Source: Nonomuraea sp. H19
GTDB lineage: Bacteria > Actinomycetota > Actinomycetes > Streptosporangiales > Streptosporangiaceae
Assembly: GCF_052068215.1 (NCBI RefSeq)
Contig: NZ_JBQHCV010000011.1
Span: forward strand, 242,003 to 274,002
Reading direction: 5' to 3'
Length of the DNA: 32,000 nt
In this document: positions 16,772 through 20,974 of the stretch, one piece after another
Numbering within the stretch: the stretch's first letter is position 1
Layout: each line of letters opens with the position of its first letter
Notes under the pieces: generated by a model
What the model saw: only the letters and a program-made list of their open reading frames with translations
Told to the model about the DNA's origin: nothing
Databases searched by the model: none
Position numbers and translations under genes: made by a program

Positions 16772-19700
16772 CTACATGGAGGAGATCTGGATCAGGTCGA
16801 GTCGCCGCGACGTGGCCAGGTAGGCCCGTCCGGGCGGCCCCGCGAAGAACTGGTCGGGCTCCAGGTTGATGCCGTGCTCGCGGGCGACCACCCGGTTCGC
16901 GGGCGTGAGCAGCAGCCGGGTGCCCGCGCGAAGGACCTCGGTGACCTCGGCCGACAGCGATCGGCGATGGCCCTCAAGGAGCGGCGTGGCGTCCCCGGCC
17001 AGGATCAACGCGCGCCGGCCCAGGTCGGCGGGGGCGAGGATGTCCTGCAGGAGGGTCGGCAGGGTGTCGAAGCCCTGCTCCCTCGGCGTGATCGTGAGCT
17101 GGTCGAAGTCGTCGACGATCACGGCGTGGGGGGTGCCTTCGAAGGCCGCGACGGCCTCCCGGAGGTCGGCGTCGGTGAAGGAGGTGCCCGCCAGCGTACG
17201 GGCGCCCGGCAGCGAGCGGAGCAGCGGTGACCGGGGCGGGGCGACTGCCAGGACGTTCACCCCGGCTCGCAGCAGTCCCGTGGCCATGACGAGGGCGGCG
17301 TTGCTGCGGCCCGAGCCCGGCGGCCCGGACACCAGCACCAGATGCGGTCCGGCGCCGAAGAGGTCCAGGGCGACGGGAAGGACGTCAGGGCCGCCGACGC
17401 CGATGGGAATTCCCTCCGCGCCGCCGGCCGCGCCTCCGACCGGGCGGCCGTCCGCGCCGCGGCCGACCGCGCTCAACGGGATGGTCACGGGCAGCGGTGG
17501 GAACGGCTTCGGCAGCCGCCCCTCCGCGCGCACCGGCATCACCTGCTCCGGCGGCAGGCAGATCTGCACGTGCAGCCCCGTCGCGGCCTCGATGGCCCGC
17601 CCGGGCAGCACCGGCGGCGACACCATCCCTGACGCGAGGTAGGCCCGCCGCGTCTCCTCTCGCGGAAACGGCAGGAACAGCCGCTGCGAGAACAGATCAG
17701 GCGTCTTCCCCCGCAGCATGTCATGCCCGCCCACGGCCACCACGTGGATCCCGACGGGCGGCCCGCCGGCCACGATCCCCCGCACCGCCACCAGCAGCGG
17801 CGTCTCGAAGAAGTCGGGATTGCCGCGATCCTCGAAATACTCCCACCCGTCGATCACCAGCACGATGACCGGATGGTCTTGGGCCCGCGACAGCCGCCGC
17901 CGCTCCACCTCACCTGCCAGCCACGTCACGATCCGCCGGATGCGATCGGGCTCGCCGGACCCCGCGACCGCCCCGCAGTGCGGCAGAGACGCGTACGCCG
18001 CCAGCCCGCCCGGCTGGTTCTCGATCACGTACACCCACGCCTGAGAGGGAGAGAACCGCGAAGCCAGACTGGAGATCAGCGTCCGGACGAACGTGGTACG
18101 CCCCGACTGCGGCCCTCCGGCCACCATGAGCCGCTCGGTCCCGCCCAGGTCCAGCGCCCTCGCCGGCTGAGCCTGGTTGGCCGGATCGTCGACCAGCCCG
18201 TACGGCACCCCGCCCCCGGAAGCGATCGAGGCCAGCGACATGGCCGCGGGCAGCGGCGGCAGCAAGGGACGGAACGGCGGCTCGCCGGGCAGCCGCCGCG
18301 CCGCCTCGAGCACGGCCGCGATGGCCAGGTCCTGGTCGGTACGCCCCCGGGCCGGCGAGGACCTGAGCGAAGGACGCGGCAGGCCGAGCGCCGGCCACGG
18401 CAGCAGCCGGGCCGTGGCCGGGGCGGCGCCGGCGGGCGGCGGGTCGCCCAGGTATCCGCTTTGGAAGAGCTGCGGCGTGCGCTGCTCCCCGCCCACCCGC
18501 ATGATCATGCCCCGCCCGCGCAGCCGGGACGGGATCGTGGCAGCGTCCGGCACGCCCAGGACCTCGGTGCTGTCCGAGGGTTCGTTCTGCCGCAAGGTGA
18601 TGCGCAGGGAGATGTTGTTCTTGAGCTCGGGCGACAGCTTGCCCTGCAACGACTGCGTGGCCAGCACCAGGTGCATGCCGAGCGAGCGCCCCTTGGCGGC
18701 CACGTTGACCAGCTCGCGCAGGAAGTCGGGCGAGCTCTCCAGCACGCGGGCGAACTCGTCGAACACCATGACCAGCCGGGGCAGCCGCCCGCCCGCGTCC
18801 CAGTAGGCGTCGATCTCGCCCCCGTAGCGCGCCAGGATCGCCTCCCGCCGCCGCACTTCCGCCCGTACCGAGGCCAGGACGCGCCGCGCGGCGCTCTCGT
18901 CGAACACGTCGGCCGCCGTGTCGCCGGTGGAGCGGATCAGCCCCACCACGTGCGGGCAGTGCTCGAACGGCAGGAACGCGCTGCCGCCCTTGAAGTCGAC
19001 CAGCACCAGGTTCAGCTCGTCGGGCCGGTTGGCCAGCAACAGCGAGGTGACGAGCGTCTGCAGCAGGATGCTCTTGCCCGCGCCCGTGGCCCCGCCGAGC
19101 ATCGTGTGCGGGCCGTCCGCCGCGAGGTCCACGGTGACCGGGCCGGAGCCGTCGGCGCCGATGGCGACCCTGGTGGTCGGCCCCGGATCGGTGCTCCAGC
19201 GGGCCAGGACCAAGTCGGCGTCGGGCACGCCCAGGCCCAGCACGTCCAGCAACCGCACGGAAGCAGGGATCACGCTCTCGGCCCTGGCCAGCGTGAGCCG
19301 GTCACGCATGGGCGCCACCGCGCGGGCGATGCGCTCGGCGGCCTGCTCCCCGAGGCTCTCCGGCTGCACGAACACCGGCAGGCCCTGGCGGCCGCGGGTG
19401 AGCAGCATGCCGGTGCCGTCCAGTTCGCACACGCCGCGGCACTCGTTCAGGCTGCGCTGGTCTGCGCAGATGACGTACACGCCGACCGACGGACCCTCCC
19501 TCAGCACCTCTTTCATGCCGGGGATGTCGCGTAACGCCCGCGCCCCGTCGAGGACGACGACGACGTCCTCGCCGAAGCGGCGATCCCGGACTTTGAGGCG
19601 CTCGGTGACCAGGTCCTTCAGCTCCTCGATCCGTGCCGTCCTGGTCTCCGGCGTATTGCCCACCAGGCACGGGACCGGCCCGTCCGGGCTGAGGTGCGGC

Positions 19701-20974
19701 AGCCAGCGCGCCCAGGCCAGGTGCTCGCCCCCGGACGCGGTGATCAGGACCAGGCGCAGCTCGTCGGGCGCGCGCAGCGTGCCGAGCTGGACCAGCAGCC
19801 AGCGCAGCAGCGCGTCCACCGGATCCGGCGGGCCGATGACGCCGAGCACGCCGATCTCCCGCAGGTCCACCGTGACCGGAACCCCGCGCAGCACCGGCTC
19901 GCTGAATCCCGGCCACGGCTCCCCGTCGAACTGGATCGTGGCCGGCTCGTCCGCCACGCCCACCCGCAGCGTCAGCCCGTCGGGGGAGTCCGCGTTGCGC
20001 GGCCACAGCCCGGGACCCTCGTGGGTGGCGGCGAAGGTGAGATCGACCTCGTCGGGGGCGACGACATGGCGAAGCCACTGCTCATGTACGACGTGCCGGC
20101 GAATCCGTTCGGCGGTTTCCCGCTTACGCGAGTCAAACTCACGTTCTTTCTTCCTGCGTTGGCGCCCCTCGACCCACTGCGTGGCAAAGAACGTGACGGG
20201 CGTCAATATCCCGAAGAGGAGAAAATACGCACTTTTCAACAGGATCGCCATGGCGATGGAAATCGGCAGCGGCAGCAGCGACGAAAGCAGCGCGACCGCG
20301 ATATTGCGCTGCGGTGTCTCGTTCCTGGGCAGCGCGATCCTGGCCGCCGGGACCGCCGGGGCGGGCGAGAACGCCCGGTCGAAGTCGAGCCGCCCGTCCT
20401 TGGCCCGCATGGTCCTGAGCCGCGACGGCGGCAGCGGCGCCCACCGCAGCCGGTCGTCGCCCACCTGCAGCACCCCGTCCGGCCGCAGCACGGCGGGCTC
20501 GCCCACGACGACCTCGTCCACCAGCGTGCCGTTGCGCGAGCCGAGGTCGACGACCGTGGCCTCGCCGGTCCACGACACCTCGAGGCGGGCGTGCCGCCTG
20601 GACACCCGCTGGTCCCGGAGCAGGCCGATGTCGGTGTGTTCCCGGCCGATGACGTGGCTGCCGGGGGTGAGCCAGAACACCCGGCCCGCGTCGGGCCCGG
20701 CGAACACGCGCATCGCGCCGGCGGCGGTGAGCGGCCGCCAGGGCTGGGTACGCTCCGGCTCGCCGACGCTGATCGTCGCCCCCGGCGCCAGCGGGCTGCC
20801 CGCGACGGTGGCCTCGGGGTCGAGCTTTTCGGTGCCGACGAAGCACGGCCGCTCCTTGACAGCGACGGGCAAGGAGCGCAGCAGCGAGCCGATCGTGGTC
20901 TCCGGCTCCGCCGTCACCTCGACGTCGAGCTCGGTGGCGGCTAAGGGGTCACGGATCGTCAACCGGATGATCAT
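16772..20974 (-). CDS. FtsK/SpoIIIE-family triple-ATPase with N-terminal ubiquitin-like and FHA modules (EssC/YukB-like type VII secretion ATPase)
   Basis: N-terminus: MIIRLTIRDPLAATELDVEVTAEPETTIGSLLRSL. FHA domain: GSHVIGREHTDIGLLRDQRVSRRHARLEV...VVDLGSRNGTLVD. Two TM helices. Three P-loops: GGATGAGKSILLQTLV, AGGPQSGRTTFVRTL and VSGPPGSGRSNAALV. GGAGAGGGG precedes the ATG. Confidence 0.9.
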   Translation of the reverse strand: MIIRLTIRDPLAATELDVEVTAEPETTIGSLLRSLPVAVKERPCFVGTEKLDPEATVAGSPLAPGATISVGEPERTQPWRPLTAAGAMRVFAGPDAGRVFWLTPGSHVIGREHTDIGLLRDQRVSRRHARLEVSWTGEATVVDLGSRNGTLVDEVVVGEPAVLRPDGVLQVGDDRLRWAPLPPSRLRTMRAKDGRLDFDRAFSPAPAVPAARIALPRNETPQRNIAVALLSSLLPLPISIAMAILLKSAYFLLFGILTPVTFFATQWVEGRQRRKKEREFDSRKRETAERIRRHVVHEQWLRHVVAPDEVDLTFAATHEGPGLWPRNADSPDGLTLRVGVADEPATIQFDGEPWPGFSEPVLRGVPVTVDLREIGVLGVIGPPDPVDALLRWLLVQLGTLRAPDELRLVLITASGGEHLAWARWLPHLSPDGPVPCLVGNTPETRTARIEELKDLVTERLKVRDRRFGEDVVVVLDGARALRDIPGMKEVLREGPSVGVYVICADQRSLNECRGVCELDGTGMLLTRGRQGLPVFVQPESLGEQAAERIARAVAPMRDRLTLARAESVIPASVRLLDVLGLGVPDADLVLARWSTDPGPTTRVAIGADGSGPVTVDLAADGPHTMLGGATGAGKSILLQTLVTSLLLANRPDELNLVLVDFKGGSAFLPFEHCPHVVGLIRSTGDTAADVFDESAARRVLASVRAEVRRREAILARYGGEIDAYWDAGGRLPRLVMVFDEFARVLESSPDFLRELVNVAAKGRSLGMHLVLATQSLQGKLSPELKNNISLRITLRQNEPSDSTEVLGVPDAATIPSRLRGRGMIMRVGGEQRTPQLFQSGYLGDPPPAGAAPATARLLPWPALGLPRPSLRSSPARGRTDQDLAIAAVLEAARRLPGEPPFRPLLPPLPAAMSLASIASGGGVPYGLVDDPANQAQPARALDLGGTERLMVAGGPQSGRTTFVRTLISSLASRFSPSQAWVYVIENQPGGLAAYASLPHCGAVAGSGEPDRIRRIVTWLAGEVERRRLSRAQDHPVIVLVIDGWEYFEDRGNPDFFETPLLVAVRGIVAGGPPVGIHVVAVGGHDMLRGKTPDLFSQRLFLPFPREETRRAYLASGMVSPPVLPGRAIEAATGLHVQICLPPEQVMPVRAEGRLPKPFPPLPVTIPLSAVGRGADGRPVGGAAGGAEGIPIGVGGPDVLPVALDLFGAGPHLVLVSGPPGSGRSNAALVMATGLLRAGVNVLAVAPPRSPLLRSLPGARTLAGTSFTDADLREAVAAFEGTPHAVIVDDFDQLTITPREQGFDTLPTLLQDILAPADLGRRALILAGDATPLLEGHRRSLSAEVTEVLRAGTRLLLTPANRVVAREHGINLEPDQFFAGPPGRAYLATSRRLDLIQISSM

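Follow-up and report, generated by a model that had tools for sequence, protein, structure and literature searches.

A candidate type VII secretion ATPase with a fused ubiquitin-like domain, encoded convergently with a WXG100 and Rhs toxin operon in Nonomuraea

The window analysed here is a 32,000-nt stretch of high-GC DNA (~71%) from Nonomuraea sp. H19, and the gene under study is a minus-strand open reading frame (ORF) for a 1400-residue ATPase that resembles the motors of type VII secretion systems (T7SSs). It is convergent with a plus-strand operon (6474–13292) encoding, in this order, a pseudokinase-like membrane protein, a helical protein of 95 residues, a protein of 198 residues (orf198), a WXG100 protein, an Rhs toxin and a probable immunity protein of 88 residues. 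An initial annotation had assigned the ATPase gene to positions 16772–20974, which proved exact, and had given it an EssC-like order of a ubiquitin-like (Ubl) module, an FHA domain, two transmembrane helices and three FtsK/SpoIIIE domains. This order was borne out by Pfam, AlphaFold2 (AF2) and alignments, with a DUF preceding the first of the three ATPase domains (Table 1).

The GC contents of the ORF at the three codon positions are 0.74/0.52/0.92 (third-position GC, or GC3, of 0.92), and the ATG at 20974 is preceded, at a distance of 5 nt, by a ribosome-binding site (RBS), GGAGAGG. The public gene call (P0001, 1396 residues) begins four codons past this RBS-bearing start (20963–20974). We preferred the longer start because the N-terminal sequence MI[IL]RL is kept across the ATPase family and forms the first β-strand of the Ubl domain, which the public start would clip. 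The nearest relative of the protein is found in N. basaltis (91% identity).

To place the ATPase in a family, we compared it with curated NCBIfam models. The T7SS models EssC (315 bits), EccCa (293) and EccCb (239) far outscored those for FtsK (49), TraD (18) and TraB (15). All three T7SS scores fall below the curated equivalog cutoffs (TIGR03928 EssC, 778; TIGR03924 EccCa, 509; TIGR03925 EccCb, 347), so that, judged by profiles, the protein appears to be a divergent branch and the equivalog of neither EssC nor EccC. A sequence search of the PDB returned Thermomonospora curvata EccC (4NH0) at 2.5e-67, Bacillus subtilis YukB at 2.7e-49, EccC5 at 6.8e-47 to ~1e-45 and FtsK at 1.9e-13, with the alignments to EccC, YukB and EccC5 covering the DUF and domains D1 and D2. 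The initial reading as a T7SS ATPase therefore held, and its "EssC-like" label needs amending: the sequence points to a protein nearer actinobacterial EccC than firmicute EssC.

The public names in use are "FtsK/SpoIIIE domain-containing protein" or "DNA segregation ATPase", and the Pfam FtsK_SpoIIIE match would also fit a DNA translocase of the FtsK/SpoIIIE/TraB kind, acting in chromosome segregation or conjugal transfer. We regard this as highly improbable and rejected it on scores and gene context. Besides the gap between 239–315 bits for T7SS models and 49 and 15 bits for FtsK and TraB, the protein has three tandem P-loop domains and an EccC-type DUF, no FtsK gamma or DNA-binding domain was detected in it, and its gene is conserved beside WXG100 and toxin genes.

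The first ~80 residues had been proposed to adopt a β-grasp fold. Modelled alone, residues 1–80 gave an AF2 structure with pLDDT 89 and pTM 0.77, in which residues 1–72 form a β-β-α-β-β arrangement; the top 50 Foldseek matches in the PDB were all ubiquitin, NEDD8, ISG15, SUMO-like, UBX or Hub1 structures (E 1.6e-4 to 2e-3; TM-scores 0.57–0.69), in agreement with that proposal. A longer model of residues 1–215, built with a 53-sequence alignment (pLDDT 82), contained the Ubl domain (1–72), the FHA sandwich (86–180) and a disordered linker. Since Foldseek with this longer model returned FHA matches only, the separate model of residues 1–80 was needed.

The initial annotation had further likened this module to EsaB/YukD. 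Its fusion to the ATPase and its fold stand, and a match to YukD at the sequence level does not. Pfam YukD (PF08817) gave no match to the whole protein at E<=1 or to nine isolated family N-termini at E<=10, a family profile of the domain searched against all PDB sequences found neither YukD nor EccD, and hhalign against a verified YukD sequence, a weak test with a single-sequence template, returned a probability of 0.12. A YukD homologue by sequence was accordingly rejected. A search of 1.84 billion cluster representatives with a profile of the domain found only 66 clusters. All full-length matches that we inspected had the Ubl-FHA-transmembrane-ATPase architecture, and the short matches inspected were contig-truncated N-termini continuing into an FHA domain.

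By both Pfam and AF2, the protein has the single FHA domain that had been placed at about residues 90–180. Pfam FHA (PF00498) matches residues 108–172 (E 5.5e-11; 43.2 bits against a gathering cutoff of 20.7), AF2 builds a β-sandwich over residues 86–180 with pLDDT above 90, and Foldseek relates it to GarA/OdhI (3e-9). The phosphothreonine-binding motifs GR (110–111), SRxH (125–128) and NGT (148–150) are each at least 90% conserved in the family, and the domain thus looks phosphothreonine-competent. Hydropathy gave one block, residues 224–264, which we read from the sequence as the two predicted transmembrane helices (~225–246 and 249–270). About 220 cytoplasmic residues precede the first of them.

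The alignment of the DUF with T. curvata EccC starts at residue 364, that with the N-terminal EccC5 fragment 8RIN covers residues 313–429, and the EccCa model spans residues 244–843 of the ATPase. The three Walker A motifs of the P-loop domains were found where the initial annotation had put them, with a canonical sequence in D1 only. D1 matches Pfam FtsK_SpoIIIE at 601–802 (E 3.8e-45); it has the Walker A motif GATGAGKS (residues 628–635; 19070–19093) and the Walker B motif VMVFDEF (within 18746–18772) with a conserved DE, and retains the full catalytic set. D2 reads GGPQSGRT (residues 953–960; 18095–18118) with a Walker B-like VIDGWE. Searched alone against the PDB, D2 matched EccC D2 best (2.3e-24), with near-identical motifs: GGPQTGKST in EccC, GGPQSGRTT here, and a shared Walker B IDGW. 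D3 reads GPPGSGRS (residues 1217–1224; 17303–17326) with a Walker B-like VIVDDFD. D3 alone gave no significant match to T7SS proteins in the PDB, and its assignment is based on the EccCb profile, which runs to residue 1276 and hence into D3, together with the P-loop pattern. In neither D2 (DGWE) nor D3 (DDFD) is the Walker B Asp followed immediately by Glu.

Lys634, Arg959 and Arg1223 are each invariant in 118/118 full-length relatives (at least 52% identity), and the same Lys/Arg/Arg pattern recurs in four far more distant members found through the Ubl profile (P0141, P0148, P0158 and P0174). This invariance, extending to the distant members, argues that the two Arg residues are a selected feature of the clade and not a sign of decay. 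The Lys-to-Arg change noted initially in D2 and D3 is thus real, but it is not unprecedented: mycobacterial EccC5 has Arg at the Walker A Lys position of D3 (GRRECGRTT) in solved-structure sequences. Lys is kept in D2 and D3 of T. curvata EccC, in D2 of EccCb1, and in D2 and D3 of Geobacillus EssC. For Staphylococcus aureus EssC D2, the reading GSPGYGRTT comes only from a published alignment in a machine-read figure and could not be confirmed from a solved structure. What seems particular to the present family is that Arg occupies both D2 and D3 and is fixed across the whole clade.

Table 1 Features of the ATPase gene and of its neighbourhood in the window
Feature	Position	Strand	Basis
Whole ATPase gene, Ubl-FHA-2TM-DUF-D1-D2-D3, 1400 residues (TM, transmembrane helix)	16772..20974	-	ORF and translation, RBS, EssC/EccC profile and PDB matches
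Predicted ubiquitin-like β-grasp domain, residues 1-72	20759..20974	-	AF2, Foldseek
Single FHA domain, residues 86-180	20435..20719	-	Pfam, AF2, Foldseek, conserved motifs
Two predicted transmembrane helices, residues ~225-270	20165..20302	-	Hydropathy block; aligns with YukB membrane/stalk region
EccC/EssC-type DUF (degenerate NTPase-like), residues ~300-580	19235..20077	-	EccC/EccC5 alignments, EccCa model
ATPase domain D1, residues ~590-835	18470..19207	-	Pfam FtsK_SpoIIIE; Walker A and B
Domain D2, residues ~920-1140	17555..18217	-	Walker A with Arg959; EccC D2 match
Domain D3, residues ~1190-1400	16775..17407	-	Walker A with Arg1223; EccCb profile
Membrane pseudokinase-like protein (kinase C-lobe-like domain and one transmembrane helix), 269 residues	6474..7283	+	Weak kinase matches
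Small helical protein, 95 residues	7276..7563	+	RBS GGGAGAGG; conserved with WXG100 across genera
orf198, conserved soluble protein, 198 residues	7702..8298	+	Present in Nonomuraea loci with WXG100 and in metagenome locus L005
WXG100 protein	8305..8607	+	Pfam WXG100 4.7e-13; TIGR03930 43.4 bits against a cutoff of 44.85
Rhs polymorphic toxin, 1474 residues	8612..13036	+	Pfam RHS_repeat 4.9e-87, DUF6531, RHS
Probable cognate immunity protein, Cys-rich, 88 residues	13026..13292	+	Follows the Rhs gene
ECF sigma factor and zf-HC2 anti-sigma factor	21091..22340	+	Pfam; divergent from ATPase

The convergent operon begins, here as in other Nonomuraea loci, with the gene for the pseudokinase-like membrane protein. 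In Nonomuraea this protein usually has ~400–490 residues, comprising a cytoplasmic domain of ~190 residues, one transmembrane helix and an ectodomain of ~200 residues; here, and in N. basaltis (278 residues), an internal in-frame deletion has removed most of the ectodomain and left short flanking pieces (…TSYEMK…GNAP… and a C-terminal …GEV.NG). It has no Pfam match. Its family profile gave 54 weak matches in the PDB, most of them protein kinases (best ULK2, E 0.028), and the kinase matches are in register from alpha-D through the catalytic loop, and again at subdomain XI. AGL stands in place of HRD and FAP in place of DFG, and there is a weak match to AfsK. From these sequence features we interpret it, with modest confidence, as a C-lobe-like pseudokinase.

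The next two genes encode proteins that escape classification. The 95-residue helical protein has no Pfam, NCBIfam or PDB assignment, and its homologues adjoin WXG100 in Nonomuraea, Streptomyces, Micromonospora and metagenome loci. orf198 likewise matched nothing in Pfam, NCBIfam or the PDB and was not detected in the decayed locus L028; it is possibly a chaperone or adaptor. A Mog1/PsbP- or EspG-like chaperone role was considered and found unsupported. The N-terminal helical domain of the Rhs protein scores 23.2 bits with the T7SS_signal model, below the cutoff of 27. Between this export domain and DUF6531, residues ~223–300 contain three hydrophobic, transmembrane-like segments, which recall the transmembrane-bearing N-terminal regions of some chaperone-requiring Rhs effectors of the type VI secretion system (T6SS). 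orf198, encoded upstream, could conceivably be such a dedicated chaperone. Homologues of the 88-residue protein follow Rhs only in loci L008, L009, L015 and L017, where they track the toxin end found here.

We then asked how far the association between the ATPase and this operon is conserved. A locus search with the single protein as query returned almost only Nonomuraea, that is, close relatives, and the wider breadth came from exact-protein look-ups, of which that for P0029 gave no result. We fetched 22 Nonomuraea loci, 20 of them with readable flanks. The pseudokinase, the small helical gene, orf198 and WXG100 lie beside the ATPase in 17 of these 20, usually in a directly convergent arrangement, and 14 of the 17 include an Rhs gene. 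L018 and L026 have lost Rhs and kept the rest; N. fastidiosa has a decayed locus. WXG100 lies within ~8 kb of the ATPase in the window; most Nonomuraea loci, as well as L001, L003, L005, L020, L029 and L030, have the two directly adjacent or at most ~4 kb apart.

Outside Nonomuraea the arrangement changes. In Streptomyces (L001 and L020) and Micromonospora (L003), the gene immediately preceding the ATPase encodes a Ser/Thr kinase fused to WD40 repeats, and these two genes point away from a block made up of the small helical gene, WXG100, the toxin gene and the immunity gene. The Micromonospora toxin is non-Rhs, yet it shares its N-terminal domain with the Rhs proteins (~4e-19 to that of the window and up to 1.7e-30 to others), as expected for a polymorphic-toxin export domain. 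WXG100 also adjoins the ATPase in three metagenome loci, with three further arrangements: L005 combines a Nonomuraea-like convergent operon with a kinase that has a Big_2 domain, and L029 and L030, from very distant family members, have WXG100 and the ATPase as neighbours, in one case with a Pkinase gene between the two. In all, Pkinase genes adjoin the ATPase in L001, L003, L005, L020 and L030. In Streptomyces canus (L001), a second Ser/Thr kinase gene (Pkinase and DUF3043; 14360–15751) lies just downstream, so that the motor gene is bracketed by two kinases. Retention of the linkage through four gene orders argues for function, not mere inheritance. The link to an Rhs/WXG100 locus, raised initially as worth testing, is in this way supported by synteny conserved across genera.

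No EccB, EccD, EccE or MycP family member was present within ±10 kb in the annotated loci or in the window, the Pfam families YukD, YukC/EssB, EssA and EsaA were absent from both, and the loci examined showed no phosphatase gene. ESX loci are also common among mycelial actinomycetes. A rival reading makes the protein an alternative coupling ATPase for a canonical ESX (T7SSa) complex of EccB/D/E/MycP encoded elsewhere, to which it would add a second, toxin-specific substrate channel without forming a system of its own. The closeness of its core to actinobacterial EccC speaks for such a role, as does the lack, in the loci, of any dedicated large membrane or cell-wall-spanning component. We nevertheless consider it unlikely: ESX core genes are linked to the ATPase in none of eight lineages, a dedicated kinase or pseudokinase membrane partner is conserved in cis, and the ATPase has transmembrane helices of its own as well as its own Ubl domain, a part that EccD supplies in ESX (PMC12637312).

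Other genes of the window are less constant companions. Of the 22 Nonomuraea loci fetched, 18 have a pair of genes for an ECF sigma factor and a zf-HC2 anti-sigma factor beside the ATPase; the pair is absent from L013, L014 and L016 and from beside the Streptomyces, Micromonospora and metagenome ATPases. This pair in Nonomuraea, set against Ser/Thr kinases in Streptomyces and Micromonospora, hints at lineage-specific control of the same machine. Between the immunity gene and the ATPase lie a LysR-family regulator gene (HTH_1 and LysR_substrate; probably ~13479–14390, minus strand) and a gene for a ricin-type β-trefoil lectin (15915–16508, minus strand), separated by a region (14400–15900) with long ORFs on both strands that have no family match. 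The LysR and lectin genes (13479–16508) have no counterpart in 28 related loci, in which the toxin operon abuts the ATPase directly. Only this genome's locus, of the 29 that were compared, has them, which suggests a genome-specific insertion of ~3.3 kb.

Farther out on the minus strand, 24612–28253 contains three genes (557, 406 and 255 residues) with weak BPD_transp_1 and ABC_tran matches. After these ABC-like genes comes a high-GC3 ORF of ~770 residues (22291–24611) with a weak TPR match and no clear family. A STAND-type regulator of 1046 residues (HTH_Crp, NB-ARC/AAA_16 and TPR; 28802–31942, minus strand) has a homologue near the ATPase of N. polychroma (L006). At the other end, the window starts with a partial LigD primase-polymerase gene, which adjoins two paralogous genes for M28 aminopeptidases on opposite strands (904–4064); one of the two aminopeptidases includes a PA domain. 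The T7-like locus of several Nonomuraea genomes is bordered by the same genes, which mark its ancestral limits.

We next compared the family with described systems. Garrett, Higginson and Palmer (2024) defined the subtypes T7SSc to T7SSj and noted that several of them include FHA proteins, kinases and phosphatases; all subtypes but T7SSd have a ubiquitin-like protein, always as a separate protein or, in T7SSa, as part of EccD (PMC11217815). Their survey of T7SSa–j contains no variant with a ubiquitin-like domain fused to the ATPase, and our literature search found no description of a Ubl-FHA-ATPase family. A Ubl-fused motor is therefore absent from the published T7SS variants that we found, and the clade is conserved but unnamed.

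EccC of the T7SSa/ESX systems (T. curvata 4NH0; EccC5 7NP7/7B9F) shares with the present ATPase the two transmembrane helices, the DUF and three FtsK-like domains of which only D1 is fully catalytic, in addition to the D2 motifs and, in EccC5, the Arg of D3. It differs in having no cytoplasmic N-terminal domains, in scoring thresholds that the present protein does not reach (EccCa and EccCb), and in not having Arg at the Walker A Lys position of D2 and D3 alike; moreover, ESX carries its Ubl domain on EccD and needs EccB/D/E/MycP, none of which is linked here. EssC/YukB of T7SSb (PDB 9QKS; PMC12637312) resembles it in placing FHA ahead of the transmembrane helices, and T7SSb as a whole in uniting a Ubl module, FHA, a DUF and a membrane pseudokinase partner within one system and in exporting WXG100 proteins and polymorphic (LXG/Rhs) toxins with immunity genes. 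By contrast, EssC/YukB has two FHA domains without phosphothreonine-binding residues and works with free YukD, whereas the present protein has one apparently phosphothreonine-competent FHA domain and a fused Ubl domain. EsaA/YueB and EssA/YueC are missing from the loci studied here, and the putative pseudokinase, unlike YukC, is C-lobe-like only and has no detectable similarity to YukC.

T7SSd, known from Olsenella and Bifidobacterium, is the only other actinobacterial variant (PMC11217815), and the present family might be an extension of it to further Actinomycetota. The shared phylum, an ATPase with a phospho-competent FHA domain (GR/SxxH/NG motifs), a linked Ser/Thr kinase, a single WXG100 protein and a small gene set (PMC11217815, Table S1) would fit this idea, which we judge improbable all the same. 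T7SSd is defined without a ubiquitin-like component and with TsdH and TsdI, the latter of more than 1600 residues with a signal peptide and Ig-like character; both are absent here, where the only comparably large secreted protein in the loci examined is the Rhs toxin. Its ATPase, TsdC, has 1563 residues and an EssC-like double-FHA N-terminus, with no P-loop readable in D2 and D3 of the published alignment. In addition, Streptomyces, Nonomuraea, Micromonospora and Frankia are not mentioned in the part of the supplementary text of PMC11217815 that was available. A more distant parallel is the threonine-phosphorylation pathway of the T6SS (PpkA, Fha and PppA), in which, as here, a Ser/Thr kinase and an FHA protein are encoded with a toxin-export machine, suggesting post-translational triggering, an analogy also drawn in PMC11217815. 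The T6SS export apparatus is unrelated, however, and only here is FHA part of the motor itself.

Considering domain architecture and gene context together, we propose that the protein probably serves as motor and channel subunit in a compact type VII-like secretion system of mycelial Actinomycetota. By analogy with the structures and biochemistry of T7SSa and T7SSb, the protein would form a hexameric motor and channel, in which D1 would power export and D2 and D3 would serve as nucleotide-binding, non-hydrolysing modules for regulation and substrate docking, as proposed for EccC. In the 2025 cryo-EM structure of B. subtilis YukB-YukC-YukD, YukD is clasped between the YukB FHA domains and the DUF, and this clasp fixes FHA2 and enables binding of the YukC pseudokinase dimer (PMC12637312). 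The presence of Ubl, FHA and DUF in one chain, with a kinase or pseudokinase alongside, is the basis of the mechanism that we suggest: the fused Ubl domain may act in cis like free YukD in B. subtilis or the N-terminal domain of EccD in mycobacteria, packing against FHA and the DUF and thereby fixing FHA for kinase or pseudokinase binding. Given that the FHA domain keeps its phosphothreonine-binding residues and that most lineages encode an active kinase next to the ATPase, threonine phosphorylation would probably switch assembly or firing, with FHA recruiting the kinase or pseudokinase. WXG100, its small partner protein and the Rhs toxin would be the likely substrates, directed at competing bacteria, and the 88-residue protein would protect the producer.

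Several points weigh against this proposal. Our search turned up no experimental work on members of the family, so that secretion, ATPase activity and phospho-regulation are inferences. In Nonomuraea, the seemingly phospho-dependent FHA domain has a pseudokinase beside it in place of an active kinase. The equivalence of the Ubl domain to YukD or EccD is suggested by modelled fold and position, with no similarity in sequence, and the model of residues 1–215 has a pTM of 0.53, at which the packing of Ubl against FHA is not established. Frankia (L004) has no WXG100 within 10 kb of the ATPase, and N. polychroma (L006) has lost WXG100 and keeps only the pseudokinase. Finally, and as the chief reservation, other membrane components could be encoded elsewhere in the genomes, outside the loci examined, and the system may borrow ESX parts instead of being self-sufficient. 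For the fuller proposal, that of an undescribed minimal T7SS subtype in which one polypeptide combines Ubl keystone, FHA adaptor, channel and motor, with a kinase or pseudokinase as sole partner and threonine phosphorylation as the gate, exporting WXG100-escorted Rhs and other polymorphic toxins in interbacterial or inter-hyphal competition, we see the chances as evenly balanced.

T7SSs are known mainly from mycobacterial ESX and firmicute Ess/Yuk, both of which need several membrane proteins beyond the motor. The family described here suggests that soil's principal producers of antibiotics (Streptomyces, Micromonospora, Nonomuraea and their relatives) have a far more compact T7SS, in which a kinase or pseudokinase would be the only conserved partner and the Ubl assembly factor is fused to the motor. 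It would offer a natural single-chain test of the proposal that the Ubl protein fixes FHA and the DUF for partner binding, and a simple setting in which to define the smallest set of components that type VII export requires. The invariant pair of Lys-to-Arg changes in D2 and D3 may provide a handle on the regulatory, non-catalytic nucleotide sites that are apparently present in all T7SS motors. For the actinomycetes themselves, the locus points to a route of competition through Rhs protein toxins, separate from their small-molecule antibiotics.

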